From the NCBI GenBank assembly GCA_965649765.1, contig OZ287756.1, forward strand, positions 38,440,001 to 38,504,000: 64,000 nucleotides of DNA, written 5' to 3'. Position 1 is the first letter of the stretch. Every line of letters begins with the position of its first letter. The notes under the pieces were generated by a model that saw nothing but the letters and a program-made list of their open reading frames with translations, ran no database searches and was not told the DNA's origin. This document shows, in pieces, positions 1 through 54,095 of the stretch. Made by a program: the position numbers and the translations under genes. This stretch comes from Bispira polyomma. Lineage: Eukaryota.

Positions 1-7
1 TAAGGAA

Positions 8-688
8 ATGTGTAGGTTACTTGACATAGAAAAGACTAGAACATCATGTTATAGACCACAATCAGACGGACTGGTTGAGAGAATGAATAGGACAATTAGA
101 CAGTTACTAAGGGCTGTAGTGAGTGATTTCGGGAGTGACTGGGATGATCACTTGCCGTACATACTCTTAGCCTACAGATCGACTATACAAGAAAGTATAA
201 ACTTTACTCCAAACTTTCTTATGTTTGGAAGGGAGGTAAGGTTACCTGTAGATATCCTGTACGGGGACAGACAAATGGGTTCTGAGGTTTCCACATGTCC
301 TGTTGAGTATGTAGAATGGATCAGGAACTCCATGCAAACTGCCTATAGGATAGCTAGAGACAATTTACACAAAAGTGCTGTCAGACAAAAACGGACATAT
401 GACATGAACACTCAGACACGAAGCTTCAGGCGAGGTGATTGGGTGTGGGTCTTTTATCCACCTGACAATAGGGACAAATTTGGTCGGGGTTGGAAAAGTC
501 CGTACTTGGTGATTTCTAAACTAGGAGAACTCAATTATCAAATACAAAAAGAGGAAAATTCTCAGCCTATTACTGTACACATAGACCACATTAAGAACTA
601 TTCTCACAGTGATACTCCGGTTAGCTGGTTATCACAGGGTGACCATAGTGATAAATCAGTTCAAGTCAGTTTAGGGCAGGAATATTAG
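8..688 (+). CDS. Gypsy integrase, C-terminal part (end of rve core plus GPY/F-SH3-like tail)
   Basis: YRPQSDGLVERMNRTI (catalytic E region), WDDHLPYILLAYRST, TPNFLMFGRE, and WKSPY...VHIDHIK. The ORF is open from the window edge. Confidence 0.93.
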   Translation: MCRLLDIEKTRTSCYRPQSDGLVERMNRTIRQLLRAVVSDFGSDWDDHLPYILLAYRSTIQESINFTPNFLMFGREVRLPVDILYGDRQMGSEVSTCPVEYVEWIRNSMQTAYRIARDNLHKSAVRQKRTYDMNTQTRSFRRGDWVWVFYPPDNRDKFGRGWKSPYLVISKLGELNYQIQKEENSQPITVHIDHIKNYSHSDTPVSWLSQGDHSDKSVQVSLGQEY

Positions 689-749
689 GGCGCAGGTGTA
701 GTACCCAGCCTAATATTCTTTTCTGTATTATGTTTTTCAGTAAAACAAA

Positions 750-1644
750 ATGTCTGTCAACGAGTTCGTATTCGATTTGGGAGCCTTTGAGGATGAGATG
801 GATGAGGAAGGTGGAGGGGCCGAGGTCATCGCCAAACGAGGCTGGAACAAGAGTGGAGGAAGGTACAGCTGTTTGGTACCGGACTGCCTACGCTGTAATA
901 CGTCCTTTGGACAGAAGTTCGCCTTAAGCAGGCACTGGGCTGATATCCACTCGCCCTTCATTACCCTGTACAAGTACATCACAGGCACTTCTTGTAGGAC
1001 ATTCAAAAGGCCATATGACCTGGAAAGACATCTGGTCAAAATACATCATTTAAATGTTACTGAGGCCAAAGTTTCGAGCTCAGGGGAGAACCTTAGAACG
1101 AAAATTGTAGCAAATAAAACATATCTTAACCCAGGAGAATTTGTGGGTCCGACGCCAAAGTCGGTGGCTGGCACTGACAAGCCGATCATTTCGGAGACAG
1201 TGCCATGCCAATCCGTTATGGATATCGACCCCCAATTTGTAAAAGTCGAAATTACAAAAGAAGATGTATTAGAAACAGATGTGGAAGTCCACCTTGAAGA
1301 ACAAGACCACCCAATGTTGCCAGATGTCCCAGAGCCACGTGCCGGGAGAGTAGAAGGTGCATGTCTGAGCACAGCAGAAACAGAAGAAAAAAAAAAGCTG
1401 ATCAGAGACATTTTGTTGGCCAAGGAAAAAATCAAAGAAGCTGGAGGTAAAAGAACAAAGACTAAGGGAGAAAGGATTGACAGAGCAACTTAAGGGAGAA
1501 CGTTCTGAAAGACGGAGGATGGAGGAGGAGATCAGGAAGTTGAAAGGACAAATGGTAAAGGGCAAGAGTGTTTTGGACGATGTCGATATTTTTAGTTATC
1601 AGGAAATGGTTTTGGGAGACTGTCTTAATTTGGGGGAAGAATAA
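750..1644 (+). CDS. Gypsy accessory ORF3: C2H2 zinc-finger plus coiled-coil protein, one frameshift near 1435
   Basis: CLVPDC...FGQKFALSRHWADIH and CRTFKRPYDLERHLVKIH. A 1-nt shift continues KKLEVKEQRLREKGLTEQLKGERSERRRMEEEIRKLKG...GEE* (TAA 1642-1644). A pyrimidine tract and CAG acceptor at 716-740 precede the ATG. Confidence 0.7.
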
Positions 1645-2198
1645 ATTTTGTTAAATTTTGGGGGCGATTTATATTATTTTCTTTCACTTCTAAATTGGCG
1701 TATTTACCAAAATTTCAAAATTCATGTCAAGTATTAATGTTTTAAATGTCAAGTTACACTTTTGACAGATGTCAAAAGTTTAACCTTTTACAGTGTCACA
1801 CGAGGACACTTATTTATCACTTATTTTATTCCAAATTTTGCATTTTAACAGTATTACTATGTTGTCAGTATCTGTATTTCAAGAGAACAGATAGTGATGT
1901 ATTCCAAGTCATTAAATGCCTTATAGTGCAGTTGTATAAAGGGTACTTTACATATTTTAATGATTTATTGACGTGGATTAAGTCACGTTTTTCTTTTTCA
2001 AATTTAATGGACATTTTACAATTTTTAATTGTGATTTATGAACTTTTATAAACAACTAAATATCAGTATTGATTATGTTTTAATGATATATATATATATA
2101 TGTAGTACATAATGTTTTTATGTAATTATAGAGGTGCCACTTTGGGCATGTAGTCAGCTGTTTTAGTGAGTTATTGTTATGAGGGCATAACAGAGTGT

Positions 2199-2211
2199 AA
2201 GCAGGGGGGAG
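2199..2211 (+). other. Polypurine tract (PPT)
   Basis: AAGCAGGGGGGAG lies immediately before the TG start of the LTR. Confidence 0.85.
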
Positions 2212-4297
2212 TGTGATGACCCAGTCATTGCGAGTACTAATTGGGGACTCGTGCTTACGATATATCTCTTATTAATGGAAGTTATGAAGCGAGAATTGGT
2301 CAATTGCTAGTATGTTAGGTATATACTAGTATTTTACTTCAAAATAAGGCTGTCATTCACTAAATTCGTAGCATTTTCATCTGTTTTACAATATTTTCTC
2401 AGAAGCGAGATCCGCCATCTTGTGATGACGTCATCACCTTATATATACACTGGTCGGTGTTGTTTACTATTAGGGCGGTGTGTTCCGAGCGGTGTTCGGG
2501 CCATTTCGGGAGCTGAGTGATGCATTGTGGGGACTTTTTCTTCTGGAAACAGCCGATTCACATCCCGAAGCTCGTCGTTTGGTCTCTATATAAGACTCGG
2601 TGTAGTTATTATTCAGCGGTGTTCTAGCCGGGGCCAACGGAAGGTACATCCATTTCTCGGATTTATTCTTATAATATTCTAATTTATTCCGGTTCGGTTC
2701 ATTCTTTTCGGATCCAAATCTCTTAATTTATATCATTAATGTATTCAAATATAGTGTGTAACTTTTATCCAATTTAATTGAGGTTTTGCTATTTATCTGC
2801 TAATTATTGTCAGATTGGGGGTTTTCCCTCCCTTTTTGTTGATCAACAAAATCTCATGTTTTTGACAGTTCTTACAACTTGTGGTATATTTTAGTTGTGA
2901 GATATAGTAATTGATAATTACTCATATAGACACATGTAATTTGCTGCTTTGCATCGCCGGTCTAGGTGTTTATTATAATGTAACTTGAATATTTGTCAGG
3001 CGGTATGTTTTTGTCAGGCCTAGCTTGTTGAACTATATAGACTGTAATTAAATAGGTTGACATTAATTGTAGAATATATAGTGTTGTTCTTGGTATTTTT
3101 CCACTGCCACCTAGCTGTCTTAAATTTTATATAGACTGGTGCATTTATATTGTTGTTTTTCCGGGTTATTGTACCGTATAATTATATGTACACTTTTTGA
3201 TTTATAATATACATATTGAAGTTAATTTTGTTGTTCTTAATTTGTAATTAAAAGTCATCTTGTGAGTTTATTGATCCAGGCTTCAATAACCCCCAGCTTA
3301 TTCGGTGACCTTGCCTATACGAATCTGTTATCTGGCGACCTGCCTACTTGAACACAACACGAACTGATACTTTATTGAGACTTATATCTTAATTTGGTCA
3401 GCTGGGCTAAACAGAATTTTGGTGCCGTGACCAGGATAGGCAAACTTAAATACAAATAAATATATTTTAATTTTTTTTTTTTTTTTTGGTATAATTGTAA
3501 ATTGCTGTTGACATTTGGCGATGACACATGGGTGTACCGCCTGGTGATGTATTAGTAATTGTACAATAACACAGAGGTGTACATGGTGAATGTACAGTAA
3601 ATATAGTGTGCATGTATATGTGTATGTGTCACTGTTAACACTAGTATTAACACATTGGTGTATTATAATTGGTGATATAAAACAGTGATTGTTTAAATGT
3701 GTCTGACTGGTCCCTCAATACACACATAACAAATTACCCAGGGGTGTTTGTGGTTGAATGTTATTACCGTTAACACATAGTATTCATAAACCAAAAATGG
3801 TATTTACATGAGGTGAATATTATGGTGGTATAAAACAGTAATAAACTGTGTCTGTGAATTGCTGCTGTTAACAGGAGTATTTAGTCAACCAAAAATGGTA
3901 CTTACCTGAGGTGAATACTTGGTGGAATAAAACAGTGGTTGATTGTGAACATTCCCTACAAATAACTTACATGTGGAATACACACTAAGGTGACATCACA
4001 AAGGTTATTAACCAAGGTGAACACTGGTGTGAACAATTTCTGTCCTGGTCATATCTAAATTTTTACGCTTTTACGCATATAGCATTGACCGGAATCATAC
4101 GGAGATAACAAGGCAACATTTGAGCTACATTGGTGTTGCAAGCTAGTATTAACAGTAGGAAATCTAAAAGCTGGATCCAGGTTATGTCGGACTGGATTCC
4201 TAAATGGCCAAAAAGACAGTCAGGCGACCGATTAATTACATCCGGTCTTGAGACTTATATCTTAATTTGGTCAGCTGGGCTAAACAGGGTCGTTACA
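2212..4297 (+). repeat. Long terminal repeat with unusual internal structure
   Basis: Imperfect terminal inverted repeats TGTGATGACCC / GGGTCGTTACA. Also a 16-bp palindrome with a CRE core (GTGATGACGTCATCAC, 2422-2437), TATA-like motifs near 2439 and 2587, and a 40-bp direct repeat at 3375-3414 and 4248-4287. Confidence 0.75.
3420..3437 (+). promoter_or_regulatory. Primer-binding site complementary to the tRNA-His 3' end
   Basis: TGGTGCCGTGACCAGGAT is the reverse complement of the invertebrate tRNA-His 3' end (ATCCTGGTCACGGCA-CCA), recalled from known tRNA sequences. Confidence 0.85.
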
Positions 4298-7230
4298 CTT
4301 ACAATGGAATAGAATTAGGTGAAATCACATATTTCGAAAATTGTTTTGAGGTAAACGTTAACATCTTTGATAAAAAAATTCATAGTATTGTGCAAATAAT
4401 ATATTGTTCAATGGAAAAATATAACGATACAATGAACTTAAATTTGCATGAAAAGCATCTAAGTTACATTGATAATATGTCTTTAATTGCTAATAAGTAT
4501 CAATGCCTACAATGCGAAAAAAATTTCAAATCCAATTATCAACTGAAAAGACATGTGGCTGTATGTTACAACAGAACGAAGTATGATTTATCCGGAGGCT
4601 TTTACCATATCCTTAAAAATATCTTTTAGAAACTAGAAGATTACGGTATTAAGAGCAAATTACAAAACTACCCATACTTTGCAGTTTTCCATTTTGAAGC
4701 TATGTTACTTACTTATGATAATCCTCGGCCAAATGCTAAATTAAAGTATACTAAGATTCATTAGCTAATTAGCGTCTCAATTTGTTCTAATGTAAGGGGA
4801 TTTACAGAACCTAAATGTATTATAGATGAAGACATTAATGCTATGGTAAGTGAAATGGTTGATTATTTAATAGATATGGCCAATGAAGCCTTTATACAGG
4901 CTCAGGACAGATGGAGGGATACTATAGAGCAGATTAATACTGTTAAATATAGTTTTCAACTAGTAAATGAAGAACCTCTTCATTAATTTGAAACATAGGT
5001 TTCTGATTATATGAATCAATTACCTGTTCTAGGTTTCAACAGTGGTAAATATGATATAAAGTTGATTAAGACTCACCTTGCTAAACATCTGGTCAAAAAT
5101 AGCGAAAAAGATCAATACACTATTAAAAGGAATAACAACTAGTTATGTATTAGTACTAAGCACCTACATTTTTTGGATAAAACGAATTATATAGGACCAG
5201 GTTTTAATTATTCTAAATTTTTAAAATGTTATGAGGCTGGCAAGTAAAAAGGAGTTTTCCCTTATGATGGTTGGATAGTATTGAAAAATTGAATCATCCA
5301 AAAATACCACCACATGAAAGCTTTTATTCAACTCTTAAAGGACATAATGTATTAGAAAATGAAAAGAACTACGAATACATTTTAAAAGTATGGAAAGATA
5401 ATAACATGAAATCATTTAGGGATTATCTGATTTGGTTTAATAATCTTGATGTAAAACCTTTACTACAGCAGTATCTAAGATACAAAAGCATTATTTTCTA
5501 AAAAATATTGACATGTTTAAAAATTACATATCTGTCCCTGGAATAGCGCGTAACTTGTTATTTAAATCTACCAATAAACAATTTAGCCTATTAACAAAGC
5601 TAATATTGATCTATATTATACTTATAAGAATGGGATTGTTGGGGGCCCATCCATAAATTTCCGGAGATATCATGAAGTTAACAAAACTTATATACATGAT
5701 AATAAACTTAAAATTGTAAAAAATATAGAAGGACGGGACACAAATGCTTTATATGTTTGGGCAATATCTCAGAAAATCCCAACAGGTTTATTTGTTAGAC
5801 ATAGATTAGAAAGGAATTTTGCACCTGAAGTACTAATTACGTATCTAAAACAATACATATGGCTTGACTATCTGGCAGAACTAAAAGGTATTAAAATTCA
5901 ACATAAACTAAATTGTGGACAAGAATTTAAAATTGGACCTTATTATGTCCATGGATATGATGCAGAAAACATGAAAGTTATGGAATATTTAGGCTGTTAT
6001 TTTCACTATCATGATATTTGTCCTCTTATTAGGAACATAAAAAATCCAAAATGGCATGCACGTAAGAATAATGAACCAAAGATAGAACTTAAAAGGAAAA
6101 ATTTTGTCAAGTCGCTTGGGTATAATGTTATTAAAATGCATGAGTGTCTGTATCTTAAAGAAATTAAACCACATGTTAGCCATGTAAATGATCATTATTT
6201 GCCACCATTTTATAGAAAACATAAAGGAGAAGTTTCATTCAAGACGTTGATAAAAGCTATAATAAATGAAGATATTTTTGCTGTTTTTGAAATTGATGTA
6301 GAAATACCAATTACTGATGTAACTTATGATGCTATTGGACAACATATGCAGAAATATGTTATTAGATTTAATGTAAAGCAGAAACAGCGATATTTACTGA
6401 TTGGTGGAGTAAAAGCCAAACAAATCTTATTGGCTAGTTCCTTGGTAAAATAGTACTTAGAGCACGGATTGACAATACCTCATATTTATCAAATCATAAA
6501 ATATGTGCCTAGCACATGTTTTTATAATTTTACTCAAAAAATATGTAATGAACTTAGGAGCGGTGATGCCCTAGCTGATAAAGCTTTATTGGCTGAGGTT
6601 GCAAAATTAACGGATAATTGTTCATATGGTTGTACAATTATGTCTAAAGAAAAACATCTTAATATTAAGTACATTAAAGGTGAATTAGAGGCAAAAAAAG
6701 TTAACGTACCAACATTTAAAAACCTAACTGAACTTGACGATGAAATGTTTGAAATTGAGAAATATAAGAGTAAAATTAAATTAGATATTCCAATTCAAAT
6801 TGGTTACTTTATTCTGCAATATGCTAAATTGAAATTATTAGTGTTTTATTACGATTGTTTGGATTATTTCATTGATCGTTTAGATTATGATAAAAAGCGA
6901 TACTGACATTGAAAATTATGCTTTAAGTATTGCAGGACAAGTGGACTGTTTAAATTAGAAAAGGAATGTACCAAAATTATTTGTCTGGCTTCTAAGACTT
7001 ATATCATGAGTCAACATGACAATACAAATAAAGTATCTTGTAAAGGAATTAGTAAAAACAATCTATCTAATAGTATGGAGTTATTTAACCAAGTCTTAAA
7101 TGTAGGTTTTCGGTTACATGATACAAATATCTTTACCTATTTACTAGAAAATAATGGTTTTTCGTATTATTATGTTAAAAGGGAAGTTATCGATGACGGC
7201 ATCAGAACAAAACCTTTACAAATAACATTA
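4298..7230 (+). pseudogene. Protein-primed family B DNA polymerase (pPolB), many stops and frameshifts
   Basis: N-terminal C2HC finger (CLQCEKNFKSNYQLKRHVAVC); exonuclease GFNSGKYDIKLIK and GVFPYD/IEKLNHPKIPPHESFYSTLK; IVGGPS; DTNALY; KLTDNCSYG; IGYFILQYAKL; GLFKLE; SCKGIS. The DTDS motif appears deleted near 6890. A VSR-like insert lies at about 5850-6200. Confidence 0.93.
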
Positions 7231-7637
7231 AATCCTTGGAAAGACCTAATTAATGTGGTTGAAAAAGATCACAATCCCTTAGCTAATACATATATTTATC
7301 CACTAAAAATTAATGATATAACTTTTAAAAAATATTCATATTTGTTTTAACTATATAAAAAATAAATACATTAATATAAAAACAATGCAAGAATGGTATG
7401 AAATTAGATATGCAGTAATGTATGAAATGCTATATAAGAAACAAATACAATGTTCCTCTTTTAAGAAACTTTTAAGAGAAAGCCAAAGGGAATTATATAT
7501 CTTACAACATTGATACTGATTTATATTGAAACACTGGCCTGTTTAAAAACATACTGCAAGTACTTGACAAGAGATCTTATGCTGGACAAAATCAAATGGG
7601 AATACTGTTAATGAAATTAAGACAGCATTTCTTCTAA
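7230..7637 (+). pseudogene. NADAR-like domain, starting in frame with the pPolB C-terminus
   Basis: HNPLANTYIYPLKINDITF ... EWYEIRYAVMYEMLYKKQIQCSSFKKLLRES ... DTDLY*NTGL ... YAGQNQMGILLMKLR, read across two frameshifts and two stop codons. Confidence 0.7.
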
Positions 7638-8283
7638 TGATTCATTGAATAATGATTCAATTTGGGATCCTGCAAGCATATTAATATCTGGTTGTAGTAA
7701 TTCAGGTAAAACAAATTTTTTTGTGGAAATTACTTGATTTCAAAAATTACTTATTTGTTAATCAACCCCCCAAAAAATTATATTGCTACCGCATATGGCA
7801 ACTAAAATTTAACGAATTAAAAAAAGATCTAAATATAGTATTTAAACAAGGTCTGCCTGATGAAACTGATGGCCATACATTAAATGATAAAAATCACACT
7901 ATCTGCATTATTGATGATTTGCAAAATGAAGTAGCTAATAGTAAGTTTGTGGAAAAAATATACACTGCATATTGCCATCATTATCATATCTCAATAATCA
8001 CTGTCTTACAAAACCTTTTTATCAGCGGAAATGTCTACGCACTATCAATCTAAATAGCCATTAAGTTATACTATTTAATAACCCTAGAGACATAAACCAA
8101 ATCAGATATTTGAGTCAACAATTAGGAATGTGTGAACTTTTAATGGAGGCATTCAAAAACTCTAATGAACAAAAATATAACTATCTCCTAATAGACTTAT
8201 AACCTCATTTCAATTGGAAGTATAAATTAAGAAGTCACATATTACTGAATGAAGATACTATAGTATGTATATCATCGAAGTAA
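7637..8283 (+). pseudogene. A32/FtsK-like packaging ATPase
   Basis: Walker A ILISGCSNSGKT, Walker B ICIIDDLQ, HHYHISIITVLQNLF and FNNPRDINQI. The start overlaps the upstream stop (TAATG). Confidence 0.9.
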
Positions 8284-8590
8284 ACTGTCGAGGAACCTAA
8301 TTTAAAACGCAAAATATATAAAACAGCTGATACAAAGGGATAAAAAAGTAGCCTATACTAAACTAAATAATGCAACCATTAAACAAAGTAAAGCCATTAT
8401 AGAGGTGCTATACACTATACTTGAGTTAGGTCATTTAATGAAATATAAAAGTAGAATAAATAATAACAGATTTTTATCTAAAATTGTTACACAAGTATCC
8501 TTACAGAAAAGTAAGAAGTTTATAAAGAAATATATAATGCAAATAATAAGACTATTAAAATTATTGGTGATGATCTATTACAGTTTCAAA

Positions 8591-9030
8591 ATGAATAAAT
8601 TTGTTCTTGTATCATATGACAGATATTTAGAATTAAATAATAATTCTAAAGCAAAGATTTGAATATTCAGTTGATGAAACAAACTGAACCTAAAAATAAA
8701 TTATTAAATTCGAAAAGTGCAGAAATTGAACCCGACACTGAATTAGATATTCAGTTAATGAAACAGACTGAACCTAAAAATGACTTATTAAATTTAAAAA
8801 GTGCTGAAATAAAATCTAACACTGAAATTTATGAACTCCCAAAAAATTTATCAATACAAACCAGTCAAAGAAACAATCAAGCAAGGATCAAAATGACATC
8901 AAGCTTTATAAGAACAATTTATTAAATCAAATAAGTGATAATCAAATACCTCCCCCAGGGTTACCAAATATTATAATAAAAGACTTTCTGCATTAGAATA
9001 TTGGACTCATAATTGGATTATACAAATTAA
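8591..9030 (+). pseudogene. Polinton hypothetical protein (MNKFVLV...PPPGLP...W) with an internal 84-bp duplication
   Basis: Frameshifted ORF between the ATPase and the integrase; IQLMKQTEPKNxLLNxKSAEI occurs twice. Confidence 0.5.
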
Positions 9031-9041
9031 CTGAAAAAAAC

Positions 9042-10058
9042 ATGGTAGACAAAAAAAGGAATTAGGTAAAATTAAAGAAGATTATTTACAAGAACTATAC
9101 TTTAACCCTGATCACCCAGCATTGTACAGTGGTTTTAACAAGTTTTAATTTACAAAAAAATATAATAAACATAAGTTCACAATTAGGAAGATAAAAGAAT
9201 GGCTAGGACAGCAAGATACTTATACTTTATATAGAGCAATTAAAAGAAAATTTAAAAGGCCAATCACCATAGCTGTAAAAAAGATCAACAATGGATTTCA
9301 GATACAGCCAACATGATCTAATAAGAGAAACACAATAAAGGATTCAAACATTTTTGTGTTGTCATCAATACATTGACTAGATATTTATGGACATTTTTAA
9401 TGAAGACAGTAACAGGATTAGAAATGAAAAAGGGATACAACAAATCTTAAATGAAACAAACCCAAATTTTTATTCACTGACCGTGGGTCTGAGTATAATG
9501 GTAAAATCTTTAAAAAGTATCTGAAAGAAAACATAATCATAATTTTATGACTAACAATGAAACGAAAGTATCAATGGCCGAAAGGGTAATTAAAACCATT
9601 AAATTAAAACTAATTAAAAGAATGTCTTATAATAATAACCTTATATGGTATGATGGTTTAAAGGATTAAAAAGTTCACCACTGCATATAATAGTTCTAAT
9701 CATAGAATACTAAAACAATCTCTTAAAGAAGCAAGGAAAGAAGATGACTATGACCTCTGAGAAAAACTATGTATAAAAGAAAAAAATAGTTTCAAAGAGA
9801 ATATGACGAACGATTTTCAGGTGAAAATTTTTATGGTTGCTGACAGACAGATTAATCAAGGCAAAGCCAAGTATAAACTAAAAGATCTCAATAACGAATT
9901 GATAGGTGGTTATTTTTAAAATCCAGAATTACAAAGGGTATATCGGAAATACCACATATTGTATAGAAAAAATTATAAAGAAAAGAAAAAGAGCAGGAAA
10001 TACAGAATACTTAGTTAGATGGGAAAACTGTTCTTCTAAATTTGATAGCTGGACTAGA
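9042..10058 (+). pseudogene. Polinton retroviral-like integrase with C-terminal chromodomain
   Basis: LQELYFNPDHPA, WLGQQDTYTLYR, TDRGSEY, MAERVIKTIK; chromodomain IEKIIKKRKRAGNTEYLVRWENCSSKFDSW. Confidence 0.92.
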
Positions 10059-10074
10059 ACAAAATGTAACAGAC

Positions 10075-10480
10075 ATAAATTTCAAAGACATATTGTTTTA
10101 TATATATTTACAATCCACAAATTCTAAAGATTTACATCCACAAAATCACGCATGGGACTTCACAATTGATTCACTTATTTTAGACGACACATGGTACACG
10201 TGGTACACATGGTGGGCTAGCAGAAAATATTCTATGATAATAGTATTGATAGTGAGGATGTATATGTATATGCTGATCTCATACAAGAAAGTTTAGTTGA
10301 AGATTGTTATAGACCAATACTACGGATAGTTAGACAGAATATATCATTTATTATAGTGTACTTAAAACCAATAGGAAGAGAATCAATTAACAGAATCAGA
10401 ATATATATAAATAGGAAGAATTAAACTGATCCAGCTAGTAGTAATAAGACTACAGTATGTGTACTATATTTTACTAAGAT
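10075..10480 (+). pseudogene. Minor capsid (penton) protein
   Basis: FYIYLQSTNSKDLHPQNHAWDFT matches the Polinton penton N-terminal pattern (FY..L.S..S...P.N....F). It lies between the integrase and the major capsid gene. Confidence 0.7.
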
Positions 10481-10488
10481 AAATAAAA

Positions 10489-10716
10489 ATGGTTAATTGG
10501 GAAGACATATGTAACAGCATTAGGGGGGGAACTGAGCCATTTAAAAACACTATATATAGTATGGAATCAGACGAGGGAGGGACAAGTAATTTTGAGAAGA
10601 AGGTTACTATAGTATCACCTAGTGAACAACAGGTAGATATGGCTAAATCACAAATAAAGAAAAAAAAGAAACGATCACGTCATATCATTAAGAAAAAACA
10701 AATTGGAAAAAGATAA
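10489..10716 (+). CDS. Small basic, putative core/DNA-binding protein
   Basis: IVSPSEQQVDMAKSQI followed by a K/R-rich tail, directly upstream of the major capsid gene. Confidence 0.55.
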   Translation: MVNWEDICNSIRGGTEPFKNTIYSMESDEGGTSNFEKKVTIVSPSEQQVDMAKSQIKKKKKRSRHIIKKKQIGKR

Positions 10717-10836
10717 AAAAAAACACCCAAAAAACAAATTTGAAAAAGATCCAGTAAAAAAACAAAATCCAAAAAAATCAAAGGAAAAATAAAGAAAAAA
10801 GCAAGTTGAAAAAATAGGTATATATATATATAAGAA

Positions 10837-12170
10837 ATGATTTTATATTATTTAAATCAGAAATATTTAAATCAGAAACAGGAATGTAATACAAGAAAAA
10901 GTAGCATTATTTCAACCACCTTTGGTTGATCCTTCAATTGACCATATTGATTGGGTCGAGTACAGACCAAGTGGGCAAGTGAAAGACGATAGTGTTATTG
11001 AAATTAACGTCCCTGGTGATGGTGCAGATTATATTGATCTGAAACGCAGTCGGCTTCGTGTAACTTTTAAAATTGTAAAAGCTGATGGGTCTCCAATTAC
11101 AGATGCAGTATGGCAGTAGGCCCAGTATATCTTACCCTACAATCATTATTTCACCAAATGGATATATCTCTACAACAGATAAATCTATCGGCTAGAGTTG
11201 GTATTAATTACCCATACAAAAGCATTCTACACGTTTGGCTTCATAGTGGGTATAGTGATACTCTAACCTTAATGAGAGGAGAGTTATTTATAAATGATCA
11301 GGCTGGATATTATGACAATGTAACTGGAAATACCAGATTTCAATATAGACGAATACGCTGTAGTTTAAGTCAAGAAGTTGATTTATATGGCCCTTTAATG
11401 CTTGACTTAGCACAAAAAGATAGGCTTATTCTAAATGGTGTTCAAGTTAATTTCAAACTATATCCGAGTCACCTATGTCTGCTGCTACTGATACTGAAAA
11501 ATTGAAATGTGAATTAACACATGTCAGCATTGATTTATGCCAGGTAAAACTAAAACCAGAATTAGTTTTACCTCATGCTAATGCATTAAAAAGAGGTCCA
11601 GCTCTATATCCCTATGGGTGTAGCGAATTTAAAGGTTTTACAATTCCTAAAGGAACTAGAAATTGGAGTAATGATGGTACTTTTCACGGATCTGTACCAA
11701 GCCAATTAATCATACGATTTGTCCCTGGTGAAGCATATGGCGGGACATATCATAGAAATCCTCTAAATTTTGATCATTTTAATTTAAGCTTTCTAGAATT
11801 CACTGTAGATGGTATATCTGTCCCAGCTAAGCCATTCAAACCAGTATATATTACAAGAGGTGATTCTAGCATGACTAATAAAGCTACTAGTGGAAAATAT
11901 ACAGAGGCCTATAATTGTCTCTTCTTACATAAAGATGTCAACAATATGACTACTCTAATTGATTTCGGAGACTACCCAAATGGTTTCTGCTTGTATGGTT
12001 TCAATATTGACAGCAATATTGTTGGTGACCTACATAGTCATGTTAAAAAAGGTCATATCCGATTAACCGTAGATATTGGAAAAGATTTAGGTGAGAGTAT
12101 AAATGCTATTTTATACGCCAAATTTCCAGCTATATTAACTATTGATGAGGCTAGAGTTGTAGAAACATGA
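10837..12170 (+). pseudogene. Double jelly-roll major capsid protein, frameshifted
   Basis: LFQPPLVD...WVEYRP...IEINVPGDGADYIDLKRSRL, LQSLFHQMDISL, YPYKS, RLILNGV, NPLNFDHFNL, YPNGFCLYGFNI. Confidence 0.92.
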
Positions 12171-12609
12171 ATACCATTGAATTAAAATGAATTATGTTAA
12201 ATGATCCCCATATTATAATTTTATGGTGGAGTTTTAGCAGCAAATGAGTTACTATATAAAATTGCTGATACACCAAAGGCTTTAATTGTTAACACCAAAC
12301 CACATCCTCATGATGGTGAACATTGAATTAGTATCTTCATATTTAACAATTATATAGAATATTTTGATTCAGCAGGTAATAATGCCCCCAAAAACATTTG
12401 AAAATTTCTTATTAAGACATCAGGATAAATATTATAAAAACAAGGATAGATTACAAAGCTACATAAGTTCAGTATGTGGTGAATACTGTATTTTCTACTT
12501 GTATCATCGCTCAAGCAGCAAATCGATTGAGAATCTTTTAAAACATTTTACTTATACTTATCTGAAAAACGACAAAATTATCATAAAATTTAAGAATGCG
12601 TTGAATTAG
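12167..12609 (+). pseudogene. Adenain-like cysteine maturation protease
   Basis: IVNTKPHPHDGEH*(W), EYFDSAG and RLQSYISSVCGEYCIFYL (H/D/Q/C). ATGA overlap with the capsid stop codon. Confidence 0.9.
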
Positions 12610-12773
12610 AATAGGTAAGAAATTATATGAAAATTTATTCTTGCACATTACCCAATAGATTTTATTATGAAACAATGTTCTATATTTGAAAATGACCTAA
12701 TATATTTATGTGTATATAAATATTTGTTTTACAAGGTTTCCTACACTCAGTAAGATGGATTACCAATTTGTAA

Positions 12774-13440
12774 ATGATTTTGTACCATACAGACTTTCAA
12801 ATAGTAAAAAGTTTCCAAGGTGGCAGACAATGTCAATGTTTTGATCATAACAGAGTGATCTGGATTTGCATAGAAGATTTCAATAATTATAATACAAATT
12901 TACATCTGGGATCAATTATCACAGTTAAAGATATACTTCAAGCTATAGATATAATGAATAATATTTTTGAACTTAAATATAATATTAAACCTCGTAATTT
13001 ACAAGACATCTGCTTAAAAATACAAACTTGATATTGTTGACTCAGATAATCTACGATGATGCAATTGATCGTTATTATTAGGAAAAAAGTTAATTCTAGA
13101 AGAAGTCATTAATAAAATACAAATTTCCATTCGTTCACACATACCTTCAAATCAAATGGAATATCATTTAGTAAATGCAATATCAAATGGTCTAAAATGT
13201 TTATGTTTTGACCATAATCGAGTATCCTAGAGTTACATAGAAGATTACAATACTTATGATCTAAATTTAAAACCAGGCTGATCATTACTATTAGACATGT
13301 ATTACAAGATATAGATATAATAAAATCGATTTTTAAACAGCAATGTAATATGGAACCTCATACCCTGAAGAGTATTTAGGTTGAACAGATTTACTACAAT
13401 GAAAATTATGATCTTGATCTCCTACCTAACATCTAAAATT
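12774..13440 (+). pseudogene. Two tandem paralogous small accessory ORFs of unknown function
   Basis: CQCFDHNRVIWICIEDFNNYNTNLHLGSIITVKDILQAIDI versus CLCFDHNRVS*SYIEDYNTYDLNLKPG...IITIRHVLQDIDI. Confidence 0.6.
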
Positions 13441-13576
13441 GTACTGTATAAGTTACCATGAAAAGGAATAACCCAGATGGTTTAACATCTGAGATGTCCC
13501 ATCATTCCTATTGAGACATAAAGGTTATGTTAATATTATGAAATCTATGAAAAAAGTTTACACAATAACAATATGA

Positions 13577-13920
13577 AGTTAGGTAATTAGTCATTTATTT
13601 TTTAAAAAATGACATCAGATTATACAATAACAGTTTGATGTAACCAGTTATTTTTAAATGTATGACATCACTTGAATGTTTTATTATAGAATATACCATA
13701 GAAAAGGTTAGGTATGTTTTTTTTAAAATGACATCAGATGAAATTATGCAATAACAGTTGATGTAACCAGTTATTTTAAAAAATATGACATCATTGAAAG
13801 TTTTATTGTACAATATACCATAAAAAGGTTAGGTAATTTGTTATTTTAAAAAATGACATCAGATGAGATTATGCAATAACAGTTGAGGTAACCAGTTATT
13901 TTAAAAAGTATGACATCAGA
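13577..13920. repeat. ~120-bp tandem repeat (about 3 copies) with six TGACATCA motifs
   Basis: The unit GTTAGGTA...AAAATGACATCAGAT...CAATAACAGTTGATGTAACCAGTTATTTTAAA...ATGACATCA recurs. Confidence 0.85.
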
Positions 13921-13988
13921 GGGTCCTATATTAATTGGACTAGGACTATCAAGACAATCAGTGCCTTAGCTACAGAGATTTGATCAAC

Positions 13989-14753
13989 ATGGCAGAACCA
14001 ACTATTACTCAGAAAGGAGACCTGATTCTGGTATCCAAAAGAAATGAAGACGCTGTATCGGGGCTTTTCAACAATGAGATGTGTCAAGCTGCTTTCAGTG
14101 TCAACCAAACCAAGGCAGAGGCAGAACAAAAAAAAAGGAACTCCAGAAAAAAATTCAAGATATTCACAATTGGGAGTACAATAGAGGGATGGGTCTTAGT
14201 TGGCTGGACTATGAACTGTATGACAACAGCCTGGAGAGCTCCCGGACTTGGCCCAAAGCCTTGAGTGTACAACCAGATGATTTGGCTAAAGCTGGATTTG
14301 AGCACAGTGGAAAAGGAGACAGATGTAACTGCAGTTGGTGTGGCTTAGTCCTCCAGTCGTGGAACTATTTTGATGAACCATTGACTCTACACAAGAAAAA
14401 CAATCCATACTGTGAGTTTATACAAATGGTTCAACTAACCAGAGAGCACTGCACAGACTGGGAAGACATGAAGAAATATACATGACAACAGATTGGCCAG
14501 CTGTAAATCATGGTCTGATCGCAAGGGCTTGAAACCTGCACAGTTAGCAAAGGCTAGATTCCTCTACACTGGATTCGGGGACAAGGTGAAATGTGTGTGG
14601 TGTCAAGTTACGCTTGATTGTTGGGAATATTTTGATGATCCAATCACAGAGCACCAAAGGCATAAGAAAAAGAACTGTTGATATCTAGATATGATACGCC
14701 CAAGCGGGAAGGTTAAAATAAAGCAATCGAGCAATAAATTTCTTGAGCAATAA
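13989..14753 (+). pseudogene. Intronless inhibitor of apoptosis (IAP), 2 BIR domains, no RING
   Basis: LAKAGFEHSGKGDRCNCSWC...HKKNNPYC and LAKARFLYTGFGDKVKCVWC...EHQRHKKKNC. ATG at 13989; frameshifts near 14135 and 14485; AATAAA downstream. Confidence 0.9.
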
Positions 14754-23571: not shown

Positions 23572-23681
23572 CATGTAGATTTTTAGCAAAGTTCTCCCCC
23601 CCCCAAAAAAAAAACATAGATTTTTAGCAAAGTTCTCCCCCCCTCAAAAAAAACATGTAGATTTTTAGCAAAGTTCTCCCC
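23572..23681. repeat. Short tandem repeat (3 copies) in the transposon 5' region
   Basis: CAT(GT)AGATTTTTAGCAAAGTTCTCCCC(n)A(n) occurs three times. Confidence 0.85.
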
Positions 23682-23744
23682 AATTTTTTTTATAGTTGTT
23701 TTAGTTATTATTGTTTATTGAGAGATAAAGGTGTATTATTGCAG

Positions 23745-25524
23745 ATGCATCCTGATCATATTCTGAAAAAGCGCATGCAGTATGATGCTGAACACCTAAC
23801 ATTTGCTTTAAGGGCAGTTTTAGAAGAAAGTCATTCAGTTAGAGGTTTTGCAAAGCTGTACAATGTACCTTACACTACCCTTTCTGATAGAGTAAATGGC
23901 AGAGTACCAATTGATAGTACAGGTCCAGGCCCAGCACCAGTATTAAGTCAGCCAGAAGAAAGTAAACTTGCAGATCATATTTTACACATGTCTAGCATTG
24001 GTTATGGTTATACCCGCTCTGATGTTATGGGTATTGCTGGAGAATATTTGTGTAGCATGGGTAGGCGTGAAACTGGCAAACCATTATCTGACAAATGGTT
24101 TTATAATTTTATGAAACGGTGGCCAGAGTTGAGGGTGATCAAACCAAGTGGTTTAGAATTGATTAGGGCTAGAAGCACAACTCCTGATATCATTACTAAG
24201 TACTATGTTGAACTTCATGATATGTTTGACAGACAAGCCTGAGTGTCTGTACAACATTGATGAAAAGGGTATTAACAGTGAGCATAAACCTCCCAATGTT
24301 GTCGGTGGCCCAAATTCGAAACCCCAATCCCTGATTTCACCTAAAGGTACCACAACTGTCATTGCATGCGGTAATGCAAATGGCATGTCAATTCCGCCGT
24401 TTTTTGTTTTCAAAGGTGTCAGGTTTCTTCCTGAACTTCTAAACAATTCCCTTTCTGGTTCTGATGGAACTGTATCGGATGGCCAAACAGGATGGTCAAA
24501 CAGTCAAATCTTCAAGACCTATCTTGATCACTTTTTAAGGTACAGCCAGGGTCAGGGTACAAAGCTCATACTTTTTAATGGGCACAGATCACATGTAAAC
24601 CCAGACACAATAGCCTGGGCAAAGAGTCATGACATTGTTCTTTTTGTTCTCCCCCCACATACTTCTTGGGTATTACAGCCATTAGATGTTGCCTGTTTTG
24701 GTCCCTTTTCACGCCAGTACCATCATGAAGCAAAGAAATTTATGGCAGAACATCCAGGTCAAATTATTACAAGGTACAATGTTGCAGAAATTTCTTCTAA
24801 GGCATACAGTGTAGGTCTTTCTGCTACAAACTTGAAAAGTGCTTTCAAGAAATGTGGTATTTTTCCATTTAATCCAAATGCATATGACTCTGATAAAACA
24901 CAGTCACACACTCTCTTTAGCACAGACAACTGTGAATCTGATCAAGAAATGGCAGAAATAAATGTCCCACAGAATGATGACCCAGTACCAGAAATCTCTG
25001 TTGATTCTTTTTTGAATCAAAAGGTGATTACTGCTAAAACAGTCAGGAGTAAATTTCTGCCACCAAAACCTAGAAACACTTTGAGTAGAGTCATCGCAGG
25101 TAAGGCAGTTACTGAAGATGATGTTGTGACAGACATTACCACTCATCTGTCACAACATAAAGTGTCTTGTAAAAAAACAACTGATGTCACCAAAGAAAAG
25201 GGTAAAGGAAAGGGTAAAGGCAAAAAACCTAAGGCAAAATTTGTCCCTCCATTAAAAAATGTAACGTCAGCCACTTCTGGTCCTTCAAATGTTGAAAGTC
25301 CACCAGAGATCGAAGAAGATGGCGACATTGAAGAAAGTGAGTGTTGTTGTATCTGCAAAAGTTTCTACCCCCCAAAAAAATCAAATTTGGATCACTTTTT
25401 TATTGTTAACTGGGACCAATGTAACCAGTGTTCACATTGGACACATTTGTCCTTCTGCACAAATATTAGAGTTCTCAGGAGGCATAGTGTGTTTCTATGT
25501 CCTCACTGTAAAAATGAACAATGA
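23745..25524 (+). pseudogene. DDE_1 transposase: HTH-psq, CENP-B HTH, DDE and C-terminal PHD finger
   Basis: YNVPYTTLSDR, SDKWFYNFMKRWP, YNIDEKG, ILFNGHRSH (catalytic D reads as N), LQPLDVACF, and CCICK...WDQCNQCSHWTHLSFC...CPHC. Frameshift near 24230. Confidence 0.9.
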
Positions 25525-31500: not shown

Positions 31501-33186
31501 TATAAGAGCACAACTCTTTACAGATTCAGAGATTACCATGTTGAGACGTTGTAACCATGCTTAACCAAGGTTCTTCAACTATTTTCTTTCTCCAGGAAAG
31601 CATGATTATGCCAATGAGCATTGCAATAATATAACACAACTAAACAACGAGCCCAAACAAAGTTGTGAACATTTGATAACAGAAAAAGAAATAAAGCTTG
31701 TTTTGAAAAATATGCAAAATGAAAAATTGCCTGGAACAGATGGTTTTCCAGCTGAGTTTTATAAATTCTTTTGGAATGATCTTGGTCAATATGTCCTAAA
31801 TAGTTTAACAAGGCTTTACAAATTCATGGGGAACTTTCTAATACCCAGAAACAGACGATAATAACATTGATCGCCAAAGGAAAAAACCTAGGGAATTTAT
31901 TAAAAATTGGTGACCGATATCGCTATTGAATGTAGACTATAAACTTCTTTCAGGTGTGCTTGCAGGTAGGCTTAAACACATATTACCTAATATTATAAGT
32001 CCTGAACAGAAAGGATTTTTAAAGGGCAGATATATAGGAAAGAATATCAGAATTGTCCATGATATAATTGACTGTTTAAATAAAACAAATAAGGCAGGTC
32101 TACTCCTTTCACTTGATTTTGAAAAGGCCTTTGATTCCTTGGAATGGGATTATTTCAACAGGGGTTTAAAAGCTTACAATATTGGTCCACAGTTCATATC
32201 TTTGTTTAACTTGTTGTACAAAAATTCTTGTAGTACTGTTATTAACAATGGTGCATTTACAAGGTTTTCCAAATATATAAATCCTGCAGACAAGGAGATC
32301 CGCTTAGCCCCTACATATTTATATTATCTCTTGAGCCTCTTGCGATTACAAACAATAAAATGATTAAAGGGATTATCATCCAAAACTTTGAGGTAAAGAT
32401 AGGACAGTATGCTGATGATACGTTCCTCTTATTGGATGGAACTGAACATTCTGTTAGAAGAAGTTTTAAAATGATAGAGATTTTTGAACATTGTTCAGGT
32501 TTAAAGATTAATATTGAAAAATCTCAAGCAGTTGGGTTAGAAAATTTTAAGAATACAAACATGTGTAAAGATTTAAACATGCAATGGGTGAAACAATATA
32601 CCTTCTTAGGATTACACTTTGACACAAACTTAGTAAATATGGTTGAACTGAATTATACATCTAAAATCAAAACCTTCAAGAAACAAAAATGTAATATGCT
32701 CACACATAAGGAAATGGTCTACCATATTTAATGAAGAAATAGACCAGGACAGCTGGAAGATTTTTTATTCAGTAAATTTTCAAAGTACAATTGAAAGCAA
32801 AATAAGAAGCTTCCAGTACCAAATACTGCATAGAGCAGTTGTTACGAATAAATATTTAACGCAATGCAAAATAAAAAAATTTGAATAAATGTTATTTTTG
32901 TCAAGTTGAGGTAGAAACTATTGAACATCTTTTTTTGTATTATCCAGTAATACAATTATTCTGGAAGGAGGTTGAAACTTTTATGGCTCCATTCTTGAAT
33001 ATTAATTTTTGTATTAAACCCAAAACTGTATTATTGGGTTATATTAGTGTTCAAAACAACAGATTAATTAACCATCTGTTAAATATTATTAAACGATATA
33101 TTGACGTTACAAAATGTAGAGAAAATATGTTAAGCATTACTGCTTTAAAGAGTACACTTTTATACACATACCAAATAAAGAAATAA
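28520..33186 (+). pseudogene. LINE ORF2 (APE endonuclease, RT, zf-RVT)
   Basis: NVRGL, SRGVAVLF, LYGPNKD, ICGD*N, ARLDLFLVS, TDHS; PGTDGFPAEFYK, LDFEKAFDS, RQGDPLSP, QYADDT; CYFCQVEVETIEHLF. Confidence 0.9.
29866..31630. mobile_element. Helentron-like non-autonomous element inserted in LINE ORF2, containing an inverted array of ~21-bp repeats
   Basis: ORF2 reads through when the segment is removed (NKFLNIN|NITQLNNEPKQSCEH). It starts AACAAGAG and ends in an ATTATGCCAATG/CATTGCAATAAT hairpin. TCGTAATTTCAACATA repeats (about 30870-31125) are inverted at 31255-31325. The same end is found at 46935-47198. Confidence 0.65.
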
Positions 33187-39500: not shown

Positions 39501-42500
39501 ACTTCTCAGCCAGACTCTCAGCAGACAGATACATATACAACCACTTCCACCACAACCACTTTGTCACCAGCCAGCAGCAGCACCACAACAACAGACCAGT
39601 ATACAGTGGCCACTCCTCTCCTTAGCCATTGGTCCTTATGAGGACCAATCTAAAAGGCCCTTTTCAGGGCCACCCAAAACTTCCTAGAAGAGATTTTGTT
39701 GTTCTTTCCCAATTTGTTTTTAAAAAGCCCTCATGACAAAAAGCAAACTGCCTCCACAAATAACTTACCTTAGGTACACACAAAACATAATACTGGCCCC
39801 CTACATACATAAATGAAAATAAATTTATAACTTTAAATTTGTAAATTTTCCCTGGCTTGTGAAACCCCTTTAAGTAGAAATCTGTTAACTCAATTTCTTT
39901 CTTATTTGGAGACCAATCTGAAGCCCCCACAACAGCTTTTTCTTTTGAAATGTACCCTGTTAAGTGGAAATCATGCTTAAATAGTGGCACTTTTCCCGTT
40001 CCCTTGAGGTTCGACTTAAAGAGGTTTAACTGTATTATATAAGTGTTTGAGGGTTAATGTTATTTACCTTAATGTTTATGTCTTAATAACAAACTCTCTA
40101 CAGTAAAATGAGTTTGATAGTTATCTTTTGTAACAATTATTTATTACATTTTTCAAATGTTTACAATTTATTTTTATTTATTATGTGGGTGGGTGGCAAG
40201 TCGTTTTTGTTTTGTGAGTATGTTAGTTAAGTTATTTGTGGGGCCAGTTTGCTTCTTGTCATAAGGGATTTTTTGTAATTTTTGAACGAAACACAGACTC
40301 AGGGCCTTTTAGGTTGGTTCTCACAAGGACCAATTGGTTCTTTTTACAGACTCAGGTGTAGGCTCAGGGTAGAGTTCATACTCATTCATTCTGCGAAGGC
40401 ACTGCCCCCTCGTTCAGGAAGTAGCCCATGAGTGTGTCTCTCTGTTCCTTGGCTGCCCTGCTGTCCTCTTCGTGCTTTGGGTGCTGTATTGCCAGGTTTA
40501 TAGTAGCAGTTCTGATCATATTGTGTATGATGACACAGGTTACGGTGGCTACCACTGGTGGTTCTTGCTGCATGGTAGAGTAGAACCCTGAACCTCTGCA
40601 CTAGTATCCAATATGAATTCTCTACCACCCTTCTCCCCCAGGAAATCCTGTAGTTGTAAATCCTCCCATTTAGGCCCCTCTCTCATTTGGAGAGGGTTTC
40701 ATGAGCCAGGTCTTCAGTACAAAGGCATCACCTTCAAGGATAAAGTAGAGGACAGGGTGCCTAAAATGACTTATGGGTGCAGGATAGGGGAAGTTGATAG
40801 ACTGATATTCTATCTTCTCCTTCAATTCTGACTTATTTAATATCTAGGAATCTGAGCAGGACCCACTAGATCCCAGATCGACAGACAGGAACCTGTACTC
40901 TGCGTCCATCCACCAAGGCCAGTATCACTATGGAGTGGGATCCCTTGTAGTAAAAAATATTCTCTGCCCCCTCTTATGGGATGTCGAATGGCAATATGTT
41001 TCCCATCTATGGCCCCAGGGCATTTAGTATATTCAATGTTTTTCTGAAGACAGACTCAACCTTCTTCCAGTCCTCTGGGTTGGTGGGGCAGGACAGAAAT
41101 TCTTTCTGGAACTCATCTCTATGATGGCCTGGCAAACCTGTGGCACAAAGGTGATGGTTGACCTGCCCATTACAAAAGAGTACTGCAGTGATGTGTTTGA
41201 CTCCCCAGTTGCCAAATGCCTCAAAGTGATAGCTATCTTGAGTCCATGGGACAGTGGTTTCCTGAACTAGGTGGTCTGTTTCTGTATCCTGTGCCCCACC
41301 CTTCTCTCCATTTCCTGGAATAATTCAGGGGGCATCCTGAAAAATCCTGTAAAAGTGGTCATCTTGCATCTCTAGCTGTGTATTGACCATGTTCTTCCCT
41401 TCCCGTAAGCCATGGCCCGACCCAGAACCTATTTTTTGCTCTTTCTCTTCTGCCCATCTTTCCTTGAAGATCTGGATTCTCTGCCTCTCTGAGACTTCTT
41501 CTTCTTCCCTCAATGTCTATATTAGCCATAACTTAGAGTTGCATGTATGGTCTCAACCTCTTTATATATGTTTTTTTTTGGACAATATAGAGGTTTTGAG
41601 GTCCCCCCCCCCCCCCGAGTGTTAATTCCCAGGAGTTGATCGGGGACAGTGAGAAGGGGGGCCGAGTTATCATAGGTCGAGGTGTGGGGTGTGGTTACAA
41701 CTTTTTTTAGGTCGTTACCGGCTGGAGCAACTTATTTTGGTCAGTCGAGGAAGTCGGGGTCAGACACACATCGGACCAAAATACCCACGATTGACCCCTA
41801 TCACATTATCGAGGCCTGTCCCTGACTAGTCTTGATAGTAGAACAGTACCATTAGCAGTTTTCCATGTTATAGCTCACCCGTCTAGATACATGTGTCCTA
41901 TTTATATATGTATATGCAAAGCTCAGTATATCTGAGTCATAGACGGTAACTTTTTCACACTGGAAATGTATTGGTAACACAAAGGATACACGCTTTAAAA
42001 TGTAGGGATATAGACATTGTACAAAAGTACAAAATCACTTCAAAATATCAGTCCATCCCAAAAACAAAAATGTTCCAAATAAGTACTTTTGTTACAAACA
42101 GGTGTAGTCAATGCAGTACAAACCATTGTGGATAAGAATAATGAAGATGCCAAAACAACAGAGGAACTCTTTGAAGGTAATAAACAGTGTTATAAACCCA
42201 ATAACAATCTTAAAGTATAGTTGTGGTAATATATATTCCCCTGATTAGCATAATCATTATTGTCAATATTTTATATATCATAGCCTAATCTGAATGGTGT
42301 AAATGGCTGCATAAATAGCTAATGAAAATAAATTGATAATTAAACTATACAAACCATAATACCTCAATTACTCAAGTTTAGACAAAGACTCATAATCTAG
42401 ATTTACACAGCTCATACATGATATTATCATATCATTATAGACAGAAGTTGAAGGTTATAATAAGGTTAATATGAAAAACTTGGCATTTCTAAAAAATATT

Positions 42501-48105: not shown

Positions 48106-48499
48106 TACGGAGCCATGATAGATATTTTTAACCAGTTTTATTCATGATTAATAACAAACTGTACACACGGTTTAGAAACAATGCGCACAATTTAATAAAC
48201 TATGCTCACAGTTTATAATTCGTGAGCACAGATTATAAACTGTGCGCACAGTTTGTAATCTGTGAGCACAAATAATAAATTGTGTGCACGGTTTATAATC
48301 TGTGAGCACAGTTTATAATTTGTGCTCACAGATTATAAATTGTGTGCACAGTTTATAATCTGTGCTAACAAATTATAATCTGTGCTCACAAATTATTAAC
48401 TGTGCTAACAAGTTATAAACTGCGCTCACGAATTTTAAACTGTGAGCACAAAATATTCTGGGTAATAAATATTAAAAATGTCCCCTCCAGGGCTCAGTA
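48106..48499. mobile_element. MITE with internal ~20-bp palindromic repeats
   Basis: TACGGAGCC ... GGGCTCAGTA ends; repeated TGTG(A/C)GCACA and TTATAA units. Confidence 0.75.
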
Positions 48500-53699: not shown

Positions 53700-53990
53700 G
53701 CACGGACAAAATGTAGTCGGACAAAATACCGAGGGGACAAAACGGCAGTCAAAATTGCAAGGGGGACAAAATGCTGTCTAACTAAATGGTACATAACACA
53801 TTTACACAAGCACTGCCTAGTAGTGTACACCATGTAACAGATTCCTGAAAAAAGCCCAGGAAAAATGTCCATCAAGTGAATCCCATCAGCTCAGGAAAAT
53901 TGTCCATCAAGTGAATCCCATCAGCAAAAAATCCCATCAGGAAAATTGGCCATCAGCTAAAGTGATGGGTGGAAAAATTGGCCATCAATT
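53700..53990. repeat. Subterminal-repeat arrays of non-autonomous DNA elements
   Basis: GGACAAAA x4 and CCATCA-containing repeats. A similar GGACA.AACCC.ACT array lies at about 63640-63740. Confidence 0.5.
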
Positions 53991-54095
53991 TTGCAAAATT
54001 TCTTCACAACAGATAATTTAACTATTATTTATAAAAATCTGATGTAAGGTAATGATAAACGACATTTACAATTGATTAAGGTGTGTGAGAGTAAT

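Follow-up and report, generated by a model that had tools for sequence, protein, structure and literature searches.

In HIV-1, 7 of 395 deleted proviruses had a junction in U5 and were read as products of premature first-strand transfer, internal sequence from behind the primer-binding site (PBS) having been joined inside the U5 of the right end (Hardy et al. 2025, PMC12657518). As described there, these products are deleted proviruses without an intact R. Template switches of reverse transcriptase (RT) are also reported to yield duplications, with non-homologous switching about 1000-fold rarer than homologous switching (PMC3187697). A second group of related structures is formed by the three-LTR complexes, in which an internal LTR stands between a polypurine tract (PPT), to its left, and a PBS, to its right (Sabot and Schulman 2007, PMC1950507; Cassandra in pear, PMC4079214; PMC7215508).

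Unusual arrangements around the PBS itself have likewise been reported. Drosophila Gypsy has two tRNA-Lys2 binding sites, of which the second is described as an 11-nt family feature that binds another portion of the tRNA (Gabus et al. 2006, PMC1635307). The Helenus TRIMs are short PBS-bearing units, some of them using tRNA-His, that are described as having two LTRs, a PBS, a PPT and a tRNA-like LTR promoter (PMC10886601). Finally, the oyster element Gypsy-39_CGi, from a mollusc, is depicted with a tRNA-His PBS behind a 5-nt spacer (Kojima 2024, PMC10886601).

Here, we analyse an LTR on contig OZ287756.1 of Bispira polyomma; 'the window' denotes the whole 64-kb stretch of DNA, whose sequence contains no N. 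The features that matter for the argument are as follows, all on the forward strand.

2..688, + strand: C-terminal part of the integrase, the 3′ end of a Ty3/Gypsy pol, open at the window edge (Pfam)
750..1493, + strand: additional open reading frame (ORF) behind pol, encoding a C2H2-like zinc finger and interrupted near 1430
2199..2211, + strand: polypurine tract (from the sequence)
2212..3414, + strand: body of the 3′ LTR, 1203 bp, minus the last 10 nt present in other copies
3375..3414, + strand: first 40-bp repeat of the LTR tip (exact-match and self-search)
3415..3419, + strand: spacer between LTR and PBS, 5 nt (6 nt counting the G at 3414)
3420..3437, + strand: tRNA-His PBS, 18 of 18 positions
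3438..4251, + strand: non-coding 5′ leader of the same family, cut off at 4251
4248..4251, + strand: TTGA microhomology at the junction of leader and LTR tip
4248..4297, + strand: terminal 50 bp of the LTR, comprising the second 40-mer and the integrase attachment end (...TTACA)
4298..14700, + strand: decayed Polinton-like element, host of the insertion (right boundary approximate)

The original prediction had been made from the letters alone, and its description of the layout held up throughout. A purine tract at 2199–2211 is followed directly by TGTGATGACCC, which begins the LTR at 2212; lying behind a PPT, this is a 3′ LTR. Nevertheless, a perfect PBS starts at 3420, 6 nt past the ...GGGCTAAACA that ends at 3413. 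The longest exact match between 3300–3450 and 4200–4310 is the predicted one of 40 nt (3375–3414 = 4248–4287), which a blastn self-search of the window also returned (E 2e-14). The 40-mer stops 5 nt short of the PBS and contains the G that follows ...AAACA. Only its second copy runs into an integrase-type end that mirrors the LTR start: the reverse complement of the end at 4297 agrees with the LTR start at 9 of 11 positions, that of the end at 3413 at only 6 of 11. The element has a TG...CA LTR with a terminal inverted repeat and a PPT ahead of it, and its LTR ends at 4297, giving a right end of 2086 bp (2212–4297) with 873 bp of extra DNA. The DNA that this end abuts is, as had been claimed, Polinton DNA, with decayed sequence resembling a protein-primed DNA polymerase B directly following. 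The junction between leader and tip lies 50 nt from the LTR end, and the acceptor is the leader; ATTAAA occurs upstream of this junction, at 3047 and 3247, the border between R and U5 being a presumptive one. No further copy of the LTR or the leader was found by self-search of the 64-kb window. Identity of the two 40-mers neither dates the event nor discriminates between explanations, as identical 40-mers are expected in 45% of cases at 1% divergence.

The LTR also contains two perfect palindromes, at 2422–2437 (16 nt) and 2834–2851 (18 nt). The former includes TGACGTCA, which we take to be a CRE-like motif, just upstream of a TATA-like run at 2440.

Compared with the described systems, the copy shares with the HIV-1 products the joining of internal post-PBS sequence to the right end, here within the presumptive U5, yet a full PPT-LTR precedes the PBS here, and the element is an invertebrate Gypsy. 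With the three-LTR complexes it shares the PPT to the left and the PBS to the right of an LTR; however, what would be the second 'core' is 837 bp of leader rather than a full core, the third LTR is 50 bp long and the middle LTR lacks an attachment end. Unlike the second site of Drosophila Gypsy, the PBS here is a full acceptor-end PBS followed by leader, and it is found in one copy. The 873-bp segment resembles Helenus as a short PBS-bearing unit for tRNA-His, but of the components that a TRIM combines in about 1 kb (two LTRs of its own, a PBS and a PPT) it has the PBS only. A tRNA- or 5S-derived LTR part of the Helenus, Ajax or Cassandra type was looked for and not found (ARAGORN, 0 genes; Rfam, no match at the gathering score), with the proviso that a degenerate box A/B would escape both searches. 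Gypsy-39_CGi has the same tRNA-His PBS and 5-nt spacer, a likeness that, in Fig S2 of PMC10886601, concerns the PBS region alone. Word searches of the open-access literature, judged from result listings and hence a weak guide, listed no LTR retrotransposon for which precisely such a layout is described.

The element itself is ordinary. The ORF at 2..688 is closed by Integrase_p58_C (Pfam E 2.6e-08), and RVT_1, RNase H and rve domains are found in its longer homologs (identity up to 60%), in keeping with the Ty3/Gypsy order in which the integrase ends pol. The best homologs are RT-RNase H-integrase polyproteins; the RT of this copy lies beyond the window edge. The closest named homologs are bivalve proteins (47–49% identical), and no relatives of the integrase were found in viral contigs. 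Named Gypsy clades of molluscs include the C-clade, AB, MolGy1-16 and Cigr-1 (PMC6238403). The zinc-finger ORF behind pol has two homologs (P0003, 420 aa, and P0004; 49% and 47% identical), and its break near 1430 is a short deletion relative to deep contigs of the family. In the protein atlas, this ORF gave only weak matches to zinc-finger clusters. Within 717–1493, a pyrimidine-rich stretch ending in CAG at 740 lies ahead of the post-pol ORF, where it might act like a splice acceptor for a subgenomic RNA.

Also typical of Ty3/Gypsy is a PBS complementary to the 3′ end of a tRNA, here tRNA-His-GTG: all 18 positions pair with the 3′ end of the Aplysia tRNA shown in Fig S2 of PMC10886601, and the 12-nt end of the PBS is labelled His_GUG in supplement 1 of PMC13524379. 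The identity of the tRNA was taken from these papers because none of the 54 viral loci carrying a 15-mer of the PBS (54 of 54) contained a tRNA gene. The 18-mer occurs once in the window, counting both strands, with about 0.001 matches to its 12-mer expected by chance. In viral contigs, neither the 18-nt PBS nor a 20-nt pattern of the LTR tip had a match; the latter had one match in genome contigs, on a bacterial scaffold, which we took as chance.

Metagenome contigs frequently carry this 18-mer: at least 120 loci were listed, and full flanks were compared for 80. None of those listed resembles the window beyond PBS and spacer. Among the loci listed, which form 108 distinct upstream contexts, ACA stands 0–4 nt before the PBS in 71, 5 nt before it in none and 6–10 nt before it in 9 (exactly 6 nt in 2), and 28 have none within 10 nt. 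The ...AAACA followed by 6 nt at 3413 is accordingly an unusual but possible LTR end, and at most hints at a second functional one. Thirteen of the metagenome loci listed repeat their pre-PBS sequence downstream; in none of them is the repeat a short LTR tip about 0.8 kb on, many of the loci being too short for this to be seen.

Second PBS-like sites 133–201 nt from the first were seen in 4 of the 120 loci listed (L010, L116, L078 and L115), of which L115 resembles a 200-bp tandem unit with one PBS per copy. Five others (L047, L048, L066, L076 and L111) have LTR pairs of about 180–190 bp with a gap of about 80–100 bp between PBS and second LTR, and by this arrangement appear to be TRIM-like elements primed by tRNA-His. 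Three GC-rich tRNA-His elements that are otherwise unrelated to the window (L019, L058 and L070) have, a few bases after the PBS, 13 letters in common with window 4246–4258, a match that is probably due to chance.

Whether the extra DNA belongs to the family or to this copy can be judged from other copies. To this end, three public runs (X1, X2 and X3, from two samples of one study) were compared as contigs. No RNA data set was among the runs listed as containing the sequence, which says nothing about expression. They contain 57–63% of the sampled words of window 1–6000, and their contigs were aligned to window 1–5400 at 85% likeness; the comparison lists 40 of 502 substitutions, 12 of 73 indels, 15 of 44 joints, 18 of 433 loose ends and 24 of 2249 pieces. 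At least seven X2 contigs pass into differing flanks ahead of 2212, placing the LTR start firmly at that position. On the other side, at least four X1 contigs continue past 3414 with the same 10 letters as 4288–4297 and then run into disagreeing flanks. In other copies, the LTR therefore has its end right behind the first 40-mer and is about 1213 bp long.

The segment behind the first 40-mer follows the internal part of the element in its depth. The median summed depth of 3601–4140 relative to the coding region is 0.79 in X1, 0.76 in X2 and 0.58 in X3, and the LTR exceeds 3601–4140 in depth 7.6-, 7.5- and 23-fold, respectively, summed contig depth not being equivalent to copy number. A segment carried in most LTRs would not drop to such an internal level, and most LTR copies were accordingly not found to carry it. 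Moreover, a contig of 414 letters (depth 178 in X1 and 172 in X2) covers 3853–4251 with three differences and continues beyond 4251 with 15 letters found nowhere in the window. Among the 15 of 44 joints listed, one low-depth contig per run joins the leader (93 letters up to 3945) to integrase DNA at 2–539 (about 85% alike), one contig joins the LTR (up to 3286) to the leader (from 3566), and a deep X3 contig joins the PBS end at 3437 to 3629. No long ORF exists on the plus strand of 3438..4251. Together, the depth, the X1 ends, the 414-letter contig and the joints show that 3415–4251 behaves as the family's ordinary 5′ leader, with PBS spacer and PBS. Relative to family contigs, coding region, LTR and leader differ by 0.8%, 1.1% and 0.8%, respectively (among the 40 of 502 substitutions listed), and such similar divergence fits a single insertion age.

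The leader also contains an imperfect duplication, 3769–3839 matching 3867–3936 at 85% over 72 nt, and part of a third copy lies near 3665–3694. Two features of the contig data were set aside. The joint of 3437 to 3629 was rejected as a view of the normal LTR-PBS junction, its 'side 23' being compatible with either side, and the almost complete lack of X1 cover over 3421–3600, where one low-depth contig accounts for what there is, was rejected as evidence, 3448–3496 having been skipped and some records filtered. Among the pieces listed (24 of 2249), none shows the normal LTR-PBS junction of the family and none crosses 3414/3415, 4247/4252 or 4297/4298; the two-tip structure of the copy is thus that given by the assembly.

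It is highly probable, whichever route produced it, that we are dealing with one copy of an ordinary Ty3/Gypsy family primed by tRNA-His, and that the anomaly is a rearrangement of this one copy. The TTGA at 4248–4251 also opens the 40-mer at 3375–3378, and the deep contigs diverge after 4251, so the copy leaves the leader for the LTR tip at this tetranucleotide. At a random join of sequences of such composition, microhomology of at least 4 nt has a chance of about 2%. Something would also have been lost: as other copies end in a full attachment site, the normal LTR-PBS junction should contain that site, and this copy would lack 10 nt of it beside the PBS or, should G be the first letter of the normal spacer, 11 nt with a 4-nt repeat. 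Other short deletions private to the copy lie near 1430, where a 4-nt repeat marks the breakpoint, and near 3130.

The explanation that we favour, with a probability of about 0.47 and thus tentatively, is that premature first-strand transfer added 873 bp from the 5′ end of the element itself to the tip of its 3′ LTR. During reverse transcription, both LTRs derive their U5 from the RNA beside the PBS, and the right end of the integrated copy is made first, in minus-strand synthesis. In the proposed sequence of events, tRNA-His would prime as usual and RT would copy the spacer and about 50 nt of U5, whereupon the short nascent strand would use TTGA to jump into the leader, landing about 830 nt past the PBS. 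RT would then copy leader, PBS and U5 once more, with the 10–11 nt beside the PBS being lost in this pass, perhaps because RNase H had nicked the RNA during the first one, or at a later point. A normal R-to-R jump and the remaining cycle would follow and, the right end being intact, integrase could insert the DNA, the target in this case being the polymerase gene of a Polinton. The order in both LTRs would then be U3-R-U5-PBS-leader-U5 tip, with the same 873 bp of extra DNA expected in the 5′ LTR.

A single jump of this kind would explain both the PBS behind a 3′-type LTR and the doubled tip, and would do so without a tandem precursor. It would also place the junction near the right end of the LTR, whereas a random deletion would need to strike the last 50 bp. 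The read-through and the second, normal jump go beyond the HIV-1 cases, and the roughly 1000-fold rarity of non-homologous switching counts against the model. So do, to a degree, the private deletions near 1430 and 3130, which suggest that microhomology lesions in this copy are not specific to RT and may have arisen at the DNA level. RNA pairing between U5 and leader near the landing site ranked first of 38 windows, but was equalled by 34 of 500 and 30 of 500 shuffles and is not significant.

Those deletions lead to the main competitor, a rearrangement of the DNA after insertion, which we consider possible although somewhat doubtful. In one version, a microhomology deletion removed most of the second unit from a three-LTR tandem whose middle LTR was shared. 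In the other, a break near the tip of the 3′ LTR was followed by synthesis-dependent strand annealing (SDSA), which copied from a 5′ LTR through PBS and leader before it was aborted and closed by microhomology end joining. An internal LTR between PPT and PBS is the very signature of three-LTR complexes (PMC4079214, PMC1950507), for which a report on barley gives about 4600 BARE1 structures (PMC7215508), and aborted SDSA closed by alternative end joining is documented in Drosophila (PMC8951532); PMC2895639 contributes classes of microhomology junctions only. The contig evidence fits such an origin just as well as it fits premature transfer. However, the tandem version needs two or three separate events (tandem, deletion and loss of 10 nt), the SDSA version a break that by luck lies just 50 bp away from where the 1.2-kb LTR stops, and nothing in either version accounts for the lost 10 nt being exactly the attachment end beside the PBS.

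An assembly misjoin through the 1.2-kb LTR is improbable. It would have connected the 3′ end of a normal element to a different copy with an internal deletion, consisting of 5′ LTR, PBS, leader and LTR tip, and the highly repeated LTR, together with the absence of a spanning piece among the 24 of 2249 listed, would allow for it. Yet the junction at 4248–4251 with its 4 nt of homology must be biological either way, the assembly runs through the region without N and divergence from the family is similar to the left and to the right of the LTR. The original prediction had named other copies lacking the segment, together with reads exposing a chimera or a one-off deletion, as the observations that would speak against it. 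Other LTR copies do lack the segment, while a chimera or one-off junction was not directly seen.

If premature transfer took place, the resulting 2086-bp LTR, present at both ends, may in principle have spread as a small sub-lineage masked by contig assembly, for which we see only a slight chance. Even less likely is the first option of the original prediction, according to which a double U5/PBS and two alternative right ends would characterise a family or a sub-lineage. In its favour, the first end has CA 6 nt before a perfect PBS, a spacing of ACA shared by the 2 of 108 listed contexts mentioned above, and rare variants are dropped by contig assembly, so that a small sub-lineage could hide. 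For the bulk of the family, however, this option is contradicted by the X1 contigs that close after the first 40-mer with a full end, by the internal-level rather than LTR-level depth of the segment and by the deep leader contig of 414 letters, which bypasses the second 40-mer; the poor mirroring of the LTR start at 3413 likewise speaks against it. The option of a parasitic PBS-bearing module riding in the LTR is hardly credible, since the 873 bp, despite being flanked by a direct repeat and containing a PBS, have no PPT before the second 40-mer, no TG start of their own and no tRNA- or Rfam-like part, and the continuation of the sequence past 4251 in deep contigs and its link to family integrase DNA elsewhere mean that the segment has no ends of its own, which along with the X1 ends and the internal-level depth contradicts the option for the family bulk. 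Of the three options, the data support the class of template switching or recombination in the last, although the tandem element that it invoked as precursor is only one of the possible routes.

As for the insertion site, the DNA after 4297 encodes a stop-riddled protein-primed DNA polymerase B (score 0.97; DNA_pol_B_2 in 34–72% of cluster members), and the insertion interrupts the N-terminal part of this Polinton gene. Fragmented frames extend across the Polinton-like element up to a BIR (IAP) gene at 14078–14680, with the BIR domain at 14078–14482. Pfam gave no match for the polymerase, ATPase and capsid-like fragments. From motifs recognised by eye, we presume that ATPase, integrase, capsid and protease are present. 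The element also holds tandem repeats of 84 bp (8663–8826) and 125 bp (13600–13918).

Further along the window, an HTH_psq plus DDE_1 transposase occupies two overlapping frames at 23661–25524, and RVT_1 reverse transcriptase fragments lie at 31914–32731 (+) and 44825–45709 (-). An Rfam histone 3′ UTR stem-loop at 39651–39697 falls within a set of inverted repeats spanning 39628–40334 (39628–39661/40301–40334 and 39722–39790/40205–40273). A 20-bp near-palindromic satellite at 48152–48490 is followed by a region (49100–61430) that is repeated about three times at a spacing of 3–7 kb and 70–95% identity.

There is nothing unusual about the parts of this copy, and events of its class have been described in retroviruses and in plant retrotransposons. 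If it arose only here, the structure is of modest interest, an accident in the replication of a retroelement or in the repair of DNA that has been preserved well. It does carry a warning for structure-based LTR annotation, in which one copy may suffice for an LTR end to be misplaced or for a spurious 'dual PBS' family to be called. Should the 5′ LTR contain the same extra DNA, the locus would constitute a clean non-retroviral genomic case of premature first-strand transfer whose product still integrated, and would point to one way in which LTRs can gain length and internal copies of the PBS. Were the sub-lineage real, it would offer a snapshot of LTR growth by capture of an element's own leader, leaving the LTR with two usable priming sites and two possible right ends.
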